Origin: Candidatus Heimdallarchaeota archaeon
GTDB lineage: Archaea; Asgardarchaeota; Heimdallarchaeia; Heimdallarchaeales; Heimdallarchaeaceae
DNA length: 64,000 bases
Assembly (NCBI GenBank): GCA_019057815.1
Contig: JAHLWR010000002.1
Location: 1 to 64,000 of the forward strand
Direction: 5' to 3'
The translations under genes were made by a program, and so were the position numbers. Below the pieces are notes generated by a model. The model was not told where the DNA came from. It worked only from the letters and a program-made list of their open reading frames with translations, and searched no databases. Below, piece after piece: positions 1,578 to 10,392 of the stretch (its first letter is position 1; each line of letters starts with the position of its first letter).

Positions 1578-2318
1578 TCAGTTTTCTAATAAAATATTAT
1601 TAGTGTTTGTTTTTATGGTTGCTCTAATTTCATCTTTACACCTATTTTTTATCTGTGCAATCTTTTCTATTAGCTTGGGAATAATGGTTAAATAATCTTT
1701 ATTCTTACAATATGGATAATCGGTTTCTGTTAAAATCTGAGAAAGAGGACAATTTTGTATCAGATTTTTGCGAGACAATGCTGGAATATCATCAACATTA
1801 ACAGAAATGAAGTATCCTTGTTCAATTATTCGCTCTAACTCATCCATAGTACCATTAAAACGATGAAAAATAACTTTCTTGAAATGAAACGATGATAAAA
1901 TATCCAATATAGAAGAAAACAAAGATGGGGCGTGAAATTGTATCACATGCGCAGAAGAGAGATTGGAAAGTATCTCATATAAGTAGGTTTCTTGCTGGTT
2001 CATTGGACACTTAGAATTCTTATCTAATCCAATTTCAGATATTACATCTACACTTTCCATTCTACTGAATAAAATTCTGGAGAAATGATCAAAATAGTCG
2101 TAGTTTTTTGGATGAAAACCAAGACCTACGGATAAAATAGAACCCAATCTAGTACTAATTCTTATAGCTTCTTCATAATCTAAAAAATCTTCAGTAGCCA
2201 AGATAATGCCGATAGACATTTGTTTAAGTTTAGTGAGAAATGATTCATCAAACAACATTTTGTTCAGACAAGTGTGTAAATGACTGTGAATATCATAAAA
2301 CTTATATTTTGTGAACAT
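1578..2318 (-). CDS. qatD: TatD-family nuclease, QatD-like
   Basis: TatD motifs DIHSH, SEIGLD, IFH, ETDYPY; likely start ATG 2318 (MFTKYKFYDIHSH); adjacent to qatB/qatC-like genes. Confidence 0.8.
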   Translation of the reverse strand: MFTKYKFYDIHSHLHTCLNKMLFDESFLTKLKQMSIGIILATEDFLDYEEAIRISTRLGSILSVGLGFHPKNYDYFDHFSRILFSRMESVDVISEIGLDKNSKCPMNQQETYLYEILSNLSSAHVIQFHAPSLFSSILDILSSFHFKKVIFHRFNGTMDELERIIEQGYFISVNVDDIPALSRKNLIQNCPLSQILTETDYPYCKNKDYLTIIPKLIEKIAQIKNRCKDEIRATIKTNTNNILLEN

Positions 2319-2355
2319 ATTAATTCGCCATACAATTAATTGATAAGGGAAATCT

Positions 2356-2748
2356 ATGGGTACCGCTTCTAGGTCTGCTCCATTGAATGATAGCAAATAT
2401 AAAAGAATTTCTGAAGAGATTCGTTCTTCTATAAAAGAAAAGAATTATGCAAAAATGGCAGATAAAACAATAGATCTTGCAGCTAATTTGGCTGGTGTAG
2501 GAACAATATATGATGCAATTAAATCTGGAATTGCAGGTTATAAAATGTATCAAAAGACAGGATCTAAATCCGCAGGAGCAATGGAAGCTGTAAGAACATT
2601 TGCTAAGGAGGGTATTACATCAGGATTAGCAGAGGGAACGATGGCTGCGATAGGAGGAACTTTTTTGGGAAATAATATCGGCCTATATGCAAAAAGAGCA
2701 GCGACTTGGGCAATAGAAAAGAGCTATTCAAGATTAATAGGTGATTAG
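2356..2748 (+). CDS. qatB: QatB-like protein, N-terminal part
   Basis: N-terminus MGTAS resembles the MGTS start of QatB; Gly/Ala-rich helices; upstream of QueC-like gene; ends in TAG immediately followed by in-frame ATG. Confidence 0.6.
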   Translation: MGTASRSAPLNDSKYKRISEEIRSSIKEKNYAKMADKTIDLAANLAGVGTIYDAIKSGIAGYKMYQKTGSKSAGAMEAVRTFAKEGITSGLAEGTMAAIGGTFLGNNIGLYAKRAATWAIEKSYSRLIGD

Positions 2749-3057
2749 ATGAAAGAATTAACTTTAAATCAAATAGTCCAATCTGTTGTTGAAAACTATT
2801 TGAAGAATCTTACATTAGATTTAATTAAAAGAAACTTTACAGAAGAATTTTATAGCATTGAAGAAACAGAGGGTGATCCCTATAAGATACGTAAAAACAT
2901 TGAAGATTTAGTGGCAGAAACTGCAAAAAAAATTGCTTCAAAAATAGTGAACAAATTGAATGAACAAGATATTAAATCCATTGAAGACTTTGAAAAAAAT
3001 GAAAATGAACAAAAAATAAGAAAAATAATTGCAGATATACTAAAAATAACCAACTAA
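2749..3057 (+). CDS. QatB-like protein, C-terminal part (same frame as 2356-2748)
   Basis: ATG directly follows TAG 2746-2748; helical 'ELTLNQIVQSVVENYLKNL' resembles the QatB C-terminal half; fused length 233 codons. Confidence 0.55.
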   Translation: MKELTLNQIVQSVVENYLKNLTLDLIKRNFTEEFYSIEETEGDPYKIRKNIEDLVAETAKKIASKIVNKLNEQDIKSIEDFEKNENEQKIRKIIADILKITN

Positions 3058-3075
3058 TAAACGGAGCGGAGCTGA

Positions 3076-4446
3076 ATGGTTCAAGGATACCTAAAAATAT
3101 ATCAAATACTTGAGAGTAAGAATAGAATAGAAATACAAAAACTTATTTCAGTTGAAAGTAAAGGAAAAAAAGAAGTCATTCTGTCAGATAAGGGGATTGA
3201 TCTTGTTAAATATGGCGCTTATCTGTACTATTCAATCAGTTCTGCTTTCGATGAGCAAGAATTTTCAGTATTCTTTTGTAATGATAAATATTTCCAAAAA
3301 ATACAAAGCATAACTCAGGAGTTAATATATTTCTTTAATGGTTTTACAGATAGATTCAAACTGAGAATAAAGCCTATTAAATATAATAAGGAGATTATTG
3401 AAAATAATCAAAAATATGATAAAGTAATATTATTTTCAGGGGGATTAGACTCACTTGCACAGACAGTGAGAAGTATTGAAAATAGAGAAAAGATACTGCT
3501 ATGTTACACAAATCATAATACAAAAGTAACAGGAAATGTAAGAAAGCTAGTATCAGAACTGGAAAAAATGTTCAATATTAGATTAGATTTGGTGAAGATA
3601 AATTATTTGGGAATTAGATGTAAACATGGAAAAGAGCAAGGCATAATAAACAGTAGAGCGGCAGCATATGCTCTTAATGGAATAGCAATAGCTGATTCAG
3701 TAAATGCAAAAGAAGTAATTATACCAGAAAACGGTGCCATTGCAACATTACCTAAATTTGATATTTCAATAGAACCAACAAGAACAGTATCACCCTATTT
3801 AATGGAAAAAATAACTAATATTGGTTTTGATTTAACGGGTATAAAGCTATATGATTCATTAGCAAAAGAAACTAAAGCTGATGTAGTTAAAACCTTGAAG
3901 GGCAGGGAAAAACTCATTCACCTTTCCTATTCATGTACTCACCCAGGTAGACGTGATAAATTAAAGAAAGGCGAATTGCGAGATATTGGGAATTATCATT
4001 GCGGAACATGTTTAGCATGTTTTATAAGAATGACAGCTTTATTGGCTGTTGGAATTGATGAAAATAAAGCATTGTATAAACAAATGCCAATGGATTTTCA
4101 AACTATGTCAGAAATTTCTAAATACAAATATAAAAATAAATTTTATATATTAATTTCATTACTAGATTATTGCTATGACATTCTAGAGAGCACAAAAATA
4201 AACGAATTAAATCATTTTATTAGAAGTACAATAGAACTAAATCAAAATAGTCATTTCTCAGAATTTGAAGATTTAGATATATTATCCCTTCAGAGATCAT
4301 TTGCACTGGATATTTTAATAGGAATTAATGAATATTATAGAAAAAATAATCTTCATATGCAAAATTTTGTATTAGGAAAATCAATAAAATATCTTCTTGC
4401 AAAATTTGAGGTCCAATTAAATAACAGAAAGAAAGAATTAGATTAG
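3076..4446 (+). CDS. qatC: QueC-family PP-loop protein, QatC/Cap9-like
   Basis: PP-loop 'LFSGGLDS', 'IPENG', Zn site 'SYSC...HCGTCLACFIR'; 456 aa with N- and C-terminal extensions, about twice canonical QueC. Confidence 0.8.
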   Translation: MVQGYLKIYQILESKNRIEIQKLISVESKGKKEVILSDKGIDLVKYGAYLYYSISSAFDEQEFSVFFCNDKYFQKIQSITQELIYFFNGFTDRFKLRIKPIKYNKEIIENNQKYDKVILFSGGLDSLAQTVRSIENREKILLCYTNHNTKVTGNVRKLVSELEKMFNIRLDLVKINYLGIRCKHGKEQGIINSRAAAYALNGIAIADSVNAKEVIIPENGAIATLPKFDISIEPTRTVSPYLMEKITNIGFDLTGIKLYDSLAKETKADVVKTLKGREKLIHLSYSCTHPGRRDKLKKGELRDIGNYHCGTCLACFIRMTALLAVGIDENKALYKQMPMDFQTMSEISKYKYKNKFYILISLLDYCYDILESTKINELNHFIRSTIELNQNSHFSEFEDLDILSLQRSFALDILIGINEYYRKNNLHMQNFVLGKSIKYLLAKFEVQLNNRKKELD

Positions 4447-4662: not shown

Positions 4663-5676
4663 TTAAACATCACTCTTCTCAAACTTAAATTTCTTAAGAG
4701 ATTTCAACCAAAGATGTCCTGATGATGTCTTACTTAAATCCTTAGTAAGATTGATTAATTCTTGACTATTATCAATTTTTTCACATGAAGCTCCTGTTCT
4801 CTTATAGGATAAGTTTCCAACAAGAACTGGTTCTTCGCTTTTTGCTATTAGAACAATTAATGCTTTCTCTCCGTTAGTATTGGTTAGAATTCGATATTCA
4901 ATATCTTTGTTTGATATATCCTTAAGATTAGTGATAACACGATTTCTTATTTTGTCAGGGGGGTTATCAAGGTCATACAAGGTTCCGTCATCATTAAATC
5001 CTATACAAAGGACACCAGAAAAAGAGTTACTTAAACAACTAACTATTTTCCTCACATCATGAATTTCATCACTACTCTTAAACTCGAGTTCAAAATCCTC
5101 TGAGCTTGAAGCAGAATGGTGAATCCAATTGAGAATATCTTCATCTGTATAATGGCTTTTAAAGAACTGTCTATCCAATCCCAAATACTTACCAAAATGA
5201 AATGGTTCTTTGAAAAACTTCTCTCCAAAAGGGGTAATATTTACAAAATCAGGTAAAGAATCGGATAGTAGGTTATTATGTCTTATATATTCAATATAAC
5301 CTATAGAATGTGCAAAATAAATCGCTATAATAAACTCATTTAAAGGGATCTTTGCTTTAGTATAGAAGTTTTTTAGATCATCCATATTATAAGAGATTTT
5401 TTCTTTTGAAAAAAAGATGTTTAAAATTGATACAAGCTCATGAATTCTTCCACATGAGTAAAGAATCTCCATAGCAGTAGGTGAAAAAATATAATATTCA
5501 AGACCAAGTAAATTTCTTGGCATATAAACAAGTTCAACTTCTTCTAAGGAACGAAATAATCTCCATTCTTTTGGAGAAGATGGTTTGAATTTGAAACACC
5601 AACTTCCCTTTTCTAACATGGAATCATATAGTTTGGTTAGGAGTATCATTTGATCTTCAGTTATTTCTAATTTCAT
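4663..5676 (-). CDS. Schlafen/AlbA_2 domain protein with unknown N-terminal domain
   Basis: C-terminal 'EDFELEFKS...SCLSNSFSGVLCIGFNDDG...YKRTGAS'. Confidence 0.8.
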   Translation of the reverse strand: MKLEITEDQMILLTKLYDSMLEKGSWCFKFKPSSPKEWRLFRSLEEVELVYMPRNLLGLEYYIFSPTAMEILYSCGRIHELVSILNIFFSKEKISYNMDDLKNFYTKAKIPLNEFIIAIYFAHSIGYIEYIRHNNLLSDSLPDFVNITPFGEKFFKEPFHFGKYLGLDRQFFKSHYTDEDILNWIHHSASSSEDFELEFKSSDEIHDVRKIVSCLSNSFSGVLCIGFNDDGTLYDLDNPPDKIRNRVITNLKDISNKDIEYRILTNTNGEKALIVLIAKSEEPVLVGNLSYKRTGASCEKIDNSQELINLTKDLSKTSSGHLWLKSLKKFKFEKSDV

Positions 5677-5873
5677 CAAAAGTAGTTAGTTATAGAGTTT
5701 AAAAAGAAAACGTTGGAAGCTAGCCAAAAAAGATGAGTGGGTAGGAATGAAGAAAATATGGATGCTAGTTTAAAATCAAAGGAATTTTGTGGGAGTGGAT
5801 TCAACATCCTCTTTTTATTTAACTCATTTATTTGGTTTTATTGAAAAGATTCCAAGTAAATTGATAACATAGT

Positions 5874-5883
5874 CTTTATAAAG
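5874..5883 (+). promoter_or_regulatory. Putative TATA box for the cloverleaf RNA/NYN transcript
   Basis: CTTTATAAAG about 25 nt upstream of the first stem base (5906). Confidence 0.5.
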
Positions 5884-5903
5884 TTGTAAGAAAAGAATCT
5901 AAT

Positions 5904-6004
5904 GTCTCATAATTTCATGGAGCAATGTCAAAAGAAGGCATTGACTAACTAGAAATTTCTAGTAGATAAATGCAATCTAAACTTGCATCCATGGAGTTAT
6001 GGGC
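5904..6004 (+). ncRNA. Putative tRNA-like four-way-junction RNA (leader or standalone ncRNA) upstream of NYN gene
   Basis: 16-bp closing stem 5906-5921/5988-6003 plus hairpins 5923-5943, 5945-5965 and 5971-5987; all non-Watson-Crick pairs are G-U on the + strand. Confidence 0.6.
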
Positions 6005-7165
6005 TTTATGTTTAGTGGAGTGGTGTATTTGTCTTTAGATAAAGAAAGAACAATTATTGCCAAATCTTCCTATCCTCAACGTGCAGCTGTGATAATAGAT
6101 GGAGGATATTGGGATAATATCTTAAAATCTATTGGGAATCCAGATATAAATCTTGTTAGATTATGTGAAGATTTGTGCAATCCTGCTTATAGAATGAGAA
6201 CTTATTATTTTGATGGTAGTACAGAAGAAAGACAACCTTATTTTGATCACTTACAATTATATGATAGATTCGATGTTATATTAGGAGATGTAGCAACAAA
6301 AAAATTTCAATGTTCTTACTGTTCTAAAGAATCTGTCATTTATGGTCAAAAAAGAGTTGATATGCTTCTTGCAGTGAAGTTAGGGCATTTAGCCTCCACA
6401 AAACAGGTAGATGTGGTTATTTTAGTAGCAGGAGATAAAGATTTTCTCCCAGTCGTTAAAGTAGCCAAGGATGAAGGTGTAATAATTCGTTTAGCCTATT
6501 CAAGATTTCCTAAAGCAAATGTAGCTCCAGGTTTATATCAAAATGCTGATGAAAGGATACATTTGACAAAGAAATTTCTAGATAAGTATAAGAAACCTGA
6601 AAAAGTCAAAGAAAAAGAAGAAAAAACTAAAACAGAAGAAAAGAGGGAGAAAAAAAAGAAAGAACCAATTAAAGAATTTGATAACAAAACTACTCAAAAA
6701 TTAGTTGAGATACTAGCTGAGTTAATGAAAAGATATAGGGTACCTGTTTTTAATACGGGTGCATTTGGTGATCATCTTAAACAGATACAGTTTCCAATTT
6801 CATTTAAGATGCGAGAAATTGATGAATTAACAAATGGGAGAATAAAAACAAAATATCAAAATAATACTCTACATATTGAGATTTGTGAAGAGGATATGAA
6901 AAAAATTTTGCCGAATTTTGAACCTAGCGAGGATCCAGCTGTAACATTACTATTAGTCTCTCTTGAGGAGTTATTAGATGAAAAAGGTAAGGAATTTGTA
7001 GTTCACTATGAACTTGCTGAAAGATTATTCGTAAAAGAACCAGAATGGAAACAGAAATATGAATTTAAGGAAAAACATGCTTTCTCCTGTTTATTGAACT
7101 GGGCTTCAGAATTCATAGATGTAAAGAATGTCGCTGGAGAACTATTCATCGGATTGAAAAAGTGA
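5999..7165 (+). CDS. NYN-domain (LabA/DUF88, PIN fold) ribonuclease with C-terminal extension (possibly OST-HTH/LOTUS-like)
   Basis: 'AVIIDGGY', 'QKRVDMLLAV', 'LVAGDKDFLP'; true start may be TTG 6029 after GGAGTGGTG. Confidence 0.85.
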   Translation: MGFMFSGVVYLSLDKERTIIAKSSYPQRAAVIIDGGYWDNILKSIGNPDINLVRLCEDLCNPAYRMRTYYFDGSTEERQPYFDHLQLYDRFDVILGDVATKKFQCSYCSKESVIYGQKRVDMLLAVKLGHLASTKQVDVVILVAGDKDFLPVVKVAKDEGVIIRLAYSRFPKANVAPGLYQNADERIHLTKKFLDKYKKPEKVKEKEEKTKTEEKREKKKKEPIKEFDNKTTQKLVEILAELMKRYRVPVFNTGAFGDHLKQIQFPISFKMREIDELTNGRIKTKYQNNTLHIEICEEDMKKILPNFEPSEDPAVTLLLVSLEELLDEKGKEFVVHYELAERLFVKEPEWKQKYEFKEKHAFSCLLNWASEFIDVKNVAGELFIGLKK

Positions 7166-7423: not shown

Positions 7424-7529
7424 ATTGAGAAAGTTGAGGTCTTTCAATATAAAAACATCAAAAAAAGCAATTCAGTTTCTCTTCAATACTGCGAAAAAAG
7501 ATATAAGTCATTATTACTTAAAATCATTT

Positions 7530-8363
7530 ATGATAAATCAAAAGAGATTAGAGGTTTTAAAAAGGCTTGAAGAGTTAAAATATCAATCAACTGTTGAAAA
7601 AAAGATAAAACTTCGCATCAGGAAGATACATGATTCATCAATTAAAACCGAGTATATCCAAAACCCCCCTACATGTTTTACCAGATTTACAGCAAATTAT
7701 AGAGAAAATATTAAATGTCTAGAAGAAATAAGAGTTAGTCTTAAATCTGCAAATCCAAAGATAAATATGCCTATTATACTACCAGAAACAGAAGAAGAAA
7801 TAAAAGAACTAGCATTAAATGTTGTTCCTTATTTCTCTCAAGGATATGAATTGTATAAAACCTCTTTAGACATGGACATAAACTCAAGTCCAATTGTTGA
7901 ATATTATGCTCTACTTCAAATAGTAAAAGGTGTTATATTGCTAGAATTAAATCCTATTGAAGATAAATTCTTCAATGCACATGGATTGGAACATGCTAAT
8001 AATGTTGAAACAGAGCATGTATATAGAGCTAAGCCAAAAACGTTTGGAGTATTCGCAGCCTTGTTAATACGTTGTACTGACTATCTAGTCAAAGAAGATG
8101 GAAGCAAAACATTTGCTATGGATTATTATTATAACAATTATAATCCTTCTTTAAAGGACATGATTAATGACCAACGAATCTCGCAGATTCCAGAAGCATT
8201 TATTTTTACTTGGATACTCTCAGAATTAGCTAGATACCAACCAAAAAAGTGGGAACAGATATGGGATGGGAAGAAAAATAATTGGATTATTCAAATTAAC
8301 AGATTTAGAGAAGAAAAGTTACCTATGGTAATAAGGAATTTGATTATTTCACATATTGATTGA
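7530..8363 (+). CDS. YaaC-like protein
   Basis: 'YFSQG.ELY', 'SPIVEYYALLQ', 'HGL', 'LSELARYQP..W' pattern; likely start ATG 7530. Confidence 0.7.
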   Translation: MINQKRLEVLKRLEELKYQSTVEKKIKLRIRKIHDSSIKTEYIQNPPTCFTRFTANYRENIKCLEEIRVSLKSANPKINMPIILPETEEEIKELALNVVPYFSQGYELYKTSLDMDINSSPIVEYYALLQIVKGVILLELNPIEDKFFNAHGLEHANNVETEHVYRAKPKTFGVFAALLIRCTDYLVKEDGSKTFAMDYYYNNYNPSLKDMINDQRISQIPEAFIFTWILSELARYQPKKWEQIWDGKKNNWIIQINRFREEKLPMVIRNLIISHID

Positions 8364-10074: not shown

Positions 10075-10392
10075 TTAACTCATCCCTTCTGTCAGTATTT
10101 TTCCTACTGCTCTTGTCGTCATCATAAACGTTTTTTTCAATTCTTCTTGCTCATATATCAGTTCATGTAAATTCTTTAGCGATATCTCTCTCTTGTTCTC
10201 ATCTACTAGCTTTATCTCTATCCCCCATCCTCTTCCTTCCCTTTTTTCTTCTTCCATTTGTTCCTTCTGCTCTTCTATGAATCTTGCTAATATTTTCTCT
10301 AGTCTTTCACTGTTCCTTACCTTGTATTTTGCTATCTCTATACTCTTCTCTTCTTTTCCCCCATATATTTTCAGTATCATTCCCCACGTCAT
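10075..10392 (-). CDS. Hypothetical protein, MGE-like; contains repeat copy B
   Basis: 105 aa; 7 of 10 substitutions versus copy A are synonymous, indicating coding constraint. Confidence 0.7.
   Translation of the reverse strand: MTWGMILKIYGGKEEKSIEIAKYKVRNSERLEKILARFIEEQKEQMEEEKREGRGWGIEIKLVDENKREISLKNLHELIYEQEELKKTFMMTTRAVGKILTEGMS
10076..10230 (-). repeat. Copy B of the ~156-bp direct repeat
   Basis: ~93% identical to 1025-1180, same orientation. Confidence 0.9.

Follow-up and report, generated by a model that had tools for sequence, protein, structure and literature searches.

In autoregulatory leaders a nuclease acts on its own message: in E. coli the rnc leader is cut by RNase III, the 5' hairpins of DGCR8 are cut by Drosha, and Regnase-1 cuts a stem-loop in its own mRNA. 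In type III toxin-antitoxin systems (ToxIN, CptIN and TenpIN) an endoribonuclease gene directly follows an RNA with which it shares strand and promoter; the RNA consists of several short (34-36 nucleotide, nt) pseudoknotted repeats, a terminator precedes the toxin gene, and the toxins are of the ToxN type. In the AbiF/RCd22 system, from the phi027 prophage of C. difficile (Clostridioides difficile), the leader of the RNase gene contains a structured non-coding RNA that restrains the RNase by direct RNA-protein contact, in cis as well as in trans (PMC12373285). Here we describe a rod-like hairpin RNA at positions 5906-6003 of a 64,000-nt stretch of an Asgard archaeal genome (Candidatus Heimdallarchaeota archaeon, contig JAHLWR010000002.1, positions 1 to 64,000 of the forward strand), which as a whole we call the window. 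This DNA is AT-rich, and the nearest records that we found are MAGs of Heimdallarchaeota and Hodarchaeota. The hairpin stands in front of a gene for a NYN nuclease and is most likely that nuclease's own control or partner RNA.

Like AbiF/RCd22, the Asgard locus has an RNase gene whose leader contains a structured non-coding RNA, and it lies in a defence or mobile context. It differs in that AbiF is a bacterial HEPN RNase of the Abi_2 type, and its RNA ends in a terminator and contains, in place of a 100-nt rod, a pair of short abiF motifs that Rfam lists as a family; neither abiF nor any other Rfam family matched the window. The likeness to type III systems lies in the gene order, as every true copy of the hairpin with enough flanking DNA stands directly upstream of a nuclease gene and on its strand, and in the promoter that RNA and gene are predicted to share; in one clade (loci L019 and L021) the RNA is a tandem pair. 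Unlike the type III RNAs, however, it is a single rod of ~100 nt at most loci, no terminator is conserved, and the candidate toxin is a NYN protein. The single hairpin and the missing terminator speak against a classical type III design. With rnc, DGCR8 and Regnase-1 the locus shares a conserved hairpin in the nuclease's own message and, as we propose, recognition by the enzyme and negative feedback; DGCR8 has two tandem hairpins, as does the L019/L021 clade. The enzymes belong to other families (RNase III and, for Regnase-1, a eukaryotic PIN/NYN-like nuclease), and cleavage of the Asgard RNA is a prediction.

The protein has parallels of its own. MARF1 and the prokaryotic PIN-(OST-HTH) proteins, as Anantharaman 2010 is summarised in PMC5499597, join a NYN domain to winged-helix modules of the LOTUS type that are thought to recruit RNA, and the PIN-(OST-HTH) proteins are predicted to be stand-alone RNA-degradation systems whose helix-turn-helix part recruits the substrate (PMC5499597). 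The window protein has the layout of the PIN-(OST-HTH) proteins and its NYN fold matches MARF1. In contrast, its C-terminal domains have no Pfam OST-HTH match and resemble LOTUS domains at the level of generic winged helices. We found no report in the literature of a cognate RNA for MARF1 or the PIN-(OST-HTH) proteins, and nothing relevant on NYN proteins in Asgard archaea or on a NYN RNA motif. In the 2017 classification of the PIN superfamily the NYN/LabA-like enzymes were still listed as functionally uncharacterised (PMC5499597).

The hairpin and its place in the transcript

The structured element at 5906-6003 is real. Its plus strand folds at -38.8 kcal/mol, against a mean of -15.3 kcal/mol for shuffled sequences (z = -7.97), and none of 200 shuffles equalled it. 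The minimum-energy fold is a single long imperfect hairpin closed by a helix of 16 bp, in which every non-Watson-Crick pair is a G.U on the plus strand. The initial annotation, made from the letters of the DNA, had picked out this closing stem, its G-U pairs and the TATA box in front of it, and all are present; it had drawn the whole as a tRNA-like four-way junction with the geometry of a T-arm. That junction proved to be a minor fold of the window copy. It reaches -34.8 kcal/mol as against -38.8 for the rod, makes up <1% of the ensemble, has a pair probability of 0.007 for its two diagnostic arms, and is not conserved. In the closest relative, locus L018, whose protein is 59% identical, the equivalent of the cloverleaf folds at -26.4 kcal/mol and the rod at -41.5 kcal/mol. 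All 18 elements that we defined by hand fold as a single rod, mostly with a four-base loop at the end; three more elements came from the metagenome scan described below. That the RNA is not a tRNA had been stated at the outset and holds, since ARAGORN found no tRNA or tmRNA gene in the window and no model of the Rfam tRNA clan matched it even at E <= 10. On this comparison the cloverleaf reading appears largely refuted, and we rejected it.

An Rfam 15 search of the window gave no family at the gathering threshold, the best matches below it being snoRNA models (E = 1.7 and 6.1). The RNA is a new structured family with clear covariation that is absent from Rfam.

In archaea the centre of the TATA box falls ~26 nt ahead of the transcription start. 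Every promoter-proximal hairpin that we tabulated has a TATA-like box that ends 21-25 nt ahead of the first paired base (22 nt in the window), so the transcript is predicted to start at the first base of the helix, ~5905-5906 in the window. On the other side of the hairpin, most loci have a Shine-Dalgarno-like GGGAG, GAGAGGGA or GGAGTGGTG 10-13 nt past the helix and a start codon 20-35 nt past it, and in the locus comparison the codons for a DGGYW motif follow at 75-94 nt. The hairpin folds independently, and masking of the ribosome-binding site was not seen in the folds. No T-tract or terminator after the hairpin is conserved across the loci compared, several of which have no T-tract at all.

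The NYN gene probably starts after the hairpin. Judged from the comparison with L018 and from the family alignment, in which the NYN start is ~20 codons before the DGGYW motif, TTG 6029 is favoured, with ATG 6008 or GTG 6020/6023 possible. The ATG at 5999, which the initial annotation had placed inside the stem, does lie in the 3' strand of the helix but is improbable as the NYN start codon: homologues have CGTGG, CAAGG, CACGG or CGCGG at its place. As it is not conserved, we rejected it as a start and, with it, an upstream open reading frame (ORF) within the hairpin. Gene callers begin the NYN ORF inside or just past the hairpin (5999-6028 in the window, 322 in L018), and P0002 starts 27 codons too early, its ORF running through the hairpin and reading the 3' strand of the helix. 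The hairpin corrects NYN gene starts that annotators extend into it.

Covariation, strand and selection

In an alignment of 16 sequences the basal helix extends over 18 bp, and 91% of its cells are paired, against 39-46% when one strand is slid along its partner. In ten pairs both partners have changed, and the covariation score was not reached by any of 500 shuffles. An alignment of 10 sequences gave a similar result, with pairing at 91-94% over the alignments against ~42% when slid. Counting from the ends of all 18 hand-defined elements gave 92% pairing, with 47 G.U cells but 2 A.C cells, and one U.G wobble of the helix is retained in 13 of the 18. A covarying structure is thus present upstream of the homologues, where the initial annotation had proposed to look for one. 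The plus strand folds better than the minus strand, by 7-25 kcal/mol, in seven of the eight elements compared. Because G.U cells far outnumber A.C cells and the plus strand folds better, selection must act on the sense-strand RNA and not on a DNA palindrome, as the G-U pairs of the window copy had first suggested.

Fold z-scores range from -4.3 to -8.8 in 15 elements (the window and 14 others), and no shuffle was as good. Within the rod, double changes between the window and L018 comprise four compensated and one broken, with the same counts between the hairpins L019a and L021a. The hairpins of L012 and L025 are identical at 97/97 bases, whereas identity is 88% in the upstream DNA and 85% in the coding sequences, where 106 of 350 third positions differ; hairpin, coding and upstream identities rank in the same way in three other pairs. 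Purifying selection acts on the rod as a whole. Between relatives the sequence of the rod interior diverges fast.

Distribution and linkage to the NYN gene

In Asgard genomes and metagenomes of Heimdall, Hod and Loki type, the hairpin lies just 5' of the gene for a NYN homologue and on its strand. Nearly every homologue examined carries it. The full-length ones down to ~35% identity whose locus DNA was examined have it at L018, L019, L021, L012/L025, L026, L027, L011, L060, L061, L067, L065, L068, L070, L071 and the Loki-type L028. The C-terminal-only relative at L013 had no hairpin that we could find. The link that the initial annotation drew between RNA structure and NYN gene has stood up, as every true copy with enough flanking DNA precedes a NYN homologue.

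We built two covariance models, R1 from 10 copies and R2 from 16. R1 found the element in 10 of the 83 genomes of the class, one per genome except for a tandem pair in G024, and all its matches in the class are directly 5' of a NYN homologue on the same strand. It overlooked the divergent copies at L065, L068, L070 and L071, which were spotted by eye; R2 recovers all of these but the L068 copy. R2 gives held-out copies 23-67 bits; the sense strand exceeds the antisense by 24-49 bits, and the antisense strand itself reaches 25-38 bits. Stricter filters were set for a phylum-wide sample of 151 genomes. Here R2 matched only three, all from the same class, and it was protein-guided searching that brought in the Loki-type copies at L028 and L065. 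When 241 million metagenome records were scanned for an exact pattern, 18 matches came up: six true rods, of which the five with enough contig all have the NYN gene right downstream, and 12 chance matches that lack both rod and NYN gene.

The genome of the window (3.7 Mb) has one copy by both BLAST and covariance model. A dispersed repeat or miniature inverted-repeat transposable element, which would have cut the element loose from the NYN gene, was rejected: the element is single-copy, and true copies are always NYN-linked where the flank suffices. The protein family is small: a search of 5.8 billion proteins gave six clusters at E <= 1e-10, and an exhaustive search gave ~15 full-length clusters at 50% identity.

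Hairpins are mostly 97-108 nt long. Two are longer, at L068 (2808-2979, 172 nt) and L070 (300-430, 131 nt), and because both keep the basal helix with an enlarged interior, the distal part of the rod tolerates insertions. The L019/L021 clade has two tandem hairpins 1-2 nt apart (L019:2721-2923, L021:2723-2925), followed by a spacer of 75 nt. At L028 (628-725, Lokiarchaeon CR_4) runs of N between hairpin and NYN coding region make the spacing unreadable.

The NYN protein

The predicted product matches the Pfam NYN family PF01936 at 42.1 bits (cut-off 24.2; 1.6e-10), and residues 65-198 match the PADLOC candidate HEC-09 (E = 2.4e-12). HEC-09 carries its NYN domain at the C-terminus, unlike the window protein (bioRxiv 10.1101/2024.01.29.577857). 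The full AlphaFold 2 (AF2) model has a predicted local distance difference test score (pLDDT) of 81 and shows an N-terminal NYN domain with a CxxC beta-hairpin insert, a disordered Lys/Glu-rich linker and a C-terminal module. Modelled alone, the C-terminal module reaches pLDDT 95 and forms two winged helices. Foldseek matched the NYN domain to the LabA-like 2qip and to the MARF1 NYN domains 6fdl and 5yaa. D24, D62, D128, D136, D174, C95 and C98 are invariant, and because the acidic residues do not vary, the enzyme probably has activity. Many unrelated winged helices align with the C-terminal module at Z 7-9.7, and the LOTUS structures 3s93, 3rco, 8wxs and 5cd8 do so at Z 7.0-7.7. A Pfam search of three C-terminal regions gave no family at E <= 10, OST-HTH included, although divergent members may escape the profile.

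Genomic neighbourhood

The NYN gene is back-to-back with an ORF for a Schlafen protein, and the initial annotation had linked the two. This link does not extend beyond the window: there is no Schlafen homologue in 24 other NYN loci (94 kb), and we rejected the association. The Schlafen neighbour is specific to the window locus. Wherever genes were called, the neighbours of the NYN gene differ from locus to locus, and elsewhere include Nmad3, a DNA methylase, DUF87 with HNH, Eco57I-type restriction-modification, Tn7-like genes and a MarR-type regulator.

A YaaC-like protein (PF14175, 2e-13), with weak matches to PADLOC PDC-S05, is encoded at 7425-8363, directly after the NYN gene and on the same strand. 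The stretch 1578-4446 encodes a TatD-like protein that matches the QatD profile (3e-22) and a QueC-like protein that matches the QatC profile (2e-25), and two small ORFs separate their genes. It has the look of a rearranged Qat-like defence module, although we saw no QatA nearby. A 197-nt direct repeat (1025-1221 and 10076-10272, 88% identical) surrounds a nuclease-rich stretch of ~9 kb, in which the Qat-like, Schlafen, NYN and YaaC-like genes all lie, and its two copies may be the borders of an island.

Table 1. Features of the hairpin and NYN locus in the window
Feature	Position	Strand	Remarks
TATA box TTTATAAA	5876..5883	+	Predicted promoter of the hairpin/NYN transcript, canonical archaeal type
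Leader hairpin RNA, rod-like, 98 nt	5906..6003	+	Fold z = -7.97; no Rfam match; covariance models R1/R2
Conserved basal helix, 5' strand	5906..5921	+	Pairing and covariation in homologues
Conserved basal helix, 3' strand, includes ATG 5999	5988..6003	+	Pairing and covariation in homologues
Shine-Dalgarno-like GGAGTGGTG, 13 nt 3' of hairpin	6017..6025	+	Comparable spacing in most homologues
NYN nuclease gene, two winged-helix domains	6029..7165	+	378 aa from TTG 6029 (favoured start); called from ATG 6008 by gene callers
NYN (PIN-like) nuclease domain with CxxC insert	6080..6583	+	AF2 model, Foldseek, invariant residues
C-terminal tandem winged-helix module, LOTUS-like, presumed RNA-binding	6668..7162	+	AF2 model, fold matches
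Schlafen AlbA_2-domain ORF	4663-5679	-	Divergent, upstream of the NYN gene

Discussion

Our preferred reading, a tentative one to which we give somewhat less than an even chance, is that the NYN mRNA has the hairpin as its 5'-terminal leader and that the nuclease takes this same RNA as its ligand or substrate, in a negative feedback. Transcription would begin at the first base of the helix. The tandem winged-helix module would recognise the sequence-conserved basal helix and its conserved U.G wobble, and protein bound 10-13 nt from the ribosome-binding site would block initiation. Alternatively or additionally, the NYN domain may cut the leader and remove the 5' helix, leaving the message open to decay. 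In either case the nuclease would restrict its own synthesis. It is most likely that the nuclease recognises its own leader, because the partnership is fixed, the helix and wobble are conserved in sequence, the protein has a winged-helix module and the spacing of 10-13 nt is constant. The initial annotation had offered an autoregulatory substrate, decoy or antitoxin for either nuclease; for the NYN RNase this is still the best class of explanation, while the same role for the Schlafen protein and the mimicry of tRNA have fallen away.

Some observations weigh against autoregulation through the leader. No hairpin was found at L069, the most divergent full-length homologue (28% identity). In L019 and L021 the spacer after the tandem hairpins lacks a Shine-Dalgarno-like site, and 28 nt ahead of the ATG it carries a TATA-like block that is conserved. 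This block may serve the NYN gene as a promoter of its own and give a leaderless transcript; if so, the hairpins of this clade would be confined to acting in trans or on RNA from read-through. With its patchy distribution and its variable, mobile or defence-type neighbourhoods, the gene also looks more like part of a conflict system than like a housekeeping enzyme in need of homeostasis.

The main rival draws on several of these points. As an RNA antitoxin or inhibitor, the hairpin, cut from the message or made separately, would bind the NYN protein, a toxic effector of defence or abortive infection that is freed when infection or stress depletes the RNA; such a scheme would be akin to type III toxin-antitoxin systems and AbiF/RCd22. 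We consider this possible, though less probable than a feedback on the message, and the two are not mutually exclusive. It would account for the defence and mobile contexts, with homologues of QatC and QatD in the window and an Eco57I-type restriction-modification gene, DUF87 with HNH, Tn7-like genes and a DNA methylase elsewhere, for the match of the NYN domain to HEC-09, and for the presence of the element in only 10 of 83 genomes. The tandem hairpins and possible separate gene promoter of the L019/L021 clade point the same way, as do the many bacterial and Methanoregula NYN-only relatives with a hairpin and terminator just upstream. However, HEC-09 gave no phage protection in its sole published test (bioRxiv 10.1101/2024.01.29.577857). 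Moreover, the nuclease is outside the ToxN, CptN and TenpN families and the RNA has no short tandem repeats. With one hairpin per message and no conserved T-tract or terminator after it, an excess of RNA over protein is not ensured. If the nuclease played no part, the hairpin might be a leader element that shields the message from 5'-3' exonucleases, or the binding site of another regulator. 5'-terminal helices stabilise messages, the predicted transcript start is the first paired base, and the ribosome-binding site stays free, all of which suit such a role. It is nonetheless unlikely, since a generic stabiliser needs neither an 18-bp helix conserved in sequence with a fixed U.G wobble, nor a rod of ~100 nt under strong purifying selection, nor an exclusive tie to one rare gene family.

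The remaining explanations seem to us much weaker. The ~40 paired positions, usual four-base loop and constrained length of the rod, together with the MARF1-like domain layout of the protein, would suit a precursor like a pre-miRNA, a genome-encoded hairpin of ~100 nt that a MARF1-like NYN measures and cuts into guide or regulatory small RNAs. If true, this would be a hairpin-processing pathway in the closest archaeal relatives of eukaryotes, NYN-based instead of RNase III-based. We think it very improbable: no conserved guide is apparent because the interior diverges so fast between relatives, no complementary target was found in the organism's own genome, and no linkage to Argonaute was seen at the loci with genes called. 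A palindrome acting as DNA, whether operator, cruciform or mobile-element end, has in its favour that the basal strands are inverted repeats and that the antisense strand still scores 25-38 bits with R2, but is hardly credible given the excess of G.U over A.C cells, the weaker minus strand, the single copy per genome and a position that stayed fixed while the protein diverged to ~35% identity. We would say the same of a tRNA-like cloverleaf mimicking what the NYN or the Schlafen nuclease acts on. Schlafen proteins cut tRNA, and the window copy can be folded in four arms, but that fold is lost in L018 and absent from every other copy, ARAGORN and Rfam gave nothing, and the other loci have no Schlafen gene.

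Whether it serves feedback or inhibition, the Asgard rod is a new archaeal variant of the design in which a nuclease has its own leader or partner RNA. To our knowledge few cis-regulatory RNAs have been described in Asgard archaea. The rod is also a concrete candidate for the RNA ligand of a NYN and winged-helix nuclease.

The NYN-only relatives in bacteria and Methanoregula, proteins of ~185 aa, appear to follow the same theme with a different RNA. At least 8 of 14 have a short hairpin, a GC-rich terminator and a U-tract before the gene, unlike the Asgard rod. By eye there is no obvious sequence similarity between these RNAs and the rod, and R1 and R2 found nothing in L029-L032, the subset searched. 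The rod therefore looks like an RNA distinct from the bacterial hairpins. Together, the Asgard and bacterial pairs of NYN gene and upstream RNA suggest a general design across bacteria and archaea, which would be either an under-recognised class of RNA-controlled toxin or defence system or a common scheme of autoregulation. Rfam searches upstream of the bacterial NYN relatives L029-L050 gave no TEG147, abiF or other family, apart from an unrelated purine riboswitch at L033. The short hairpin and terminator are at L029, L033, L034, L036, L037 and L041-L043, ~150 nt before the NYN start, and the first hairpin looks alike in L029, L033 and L034.

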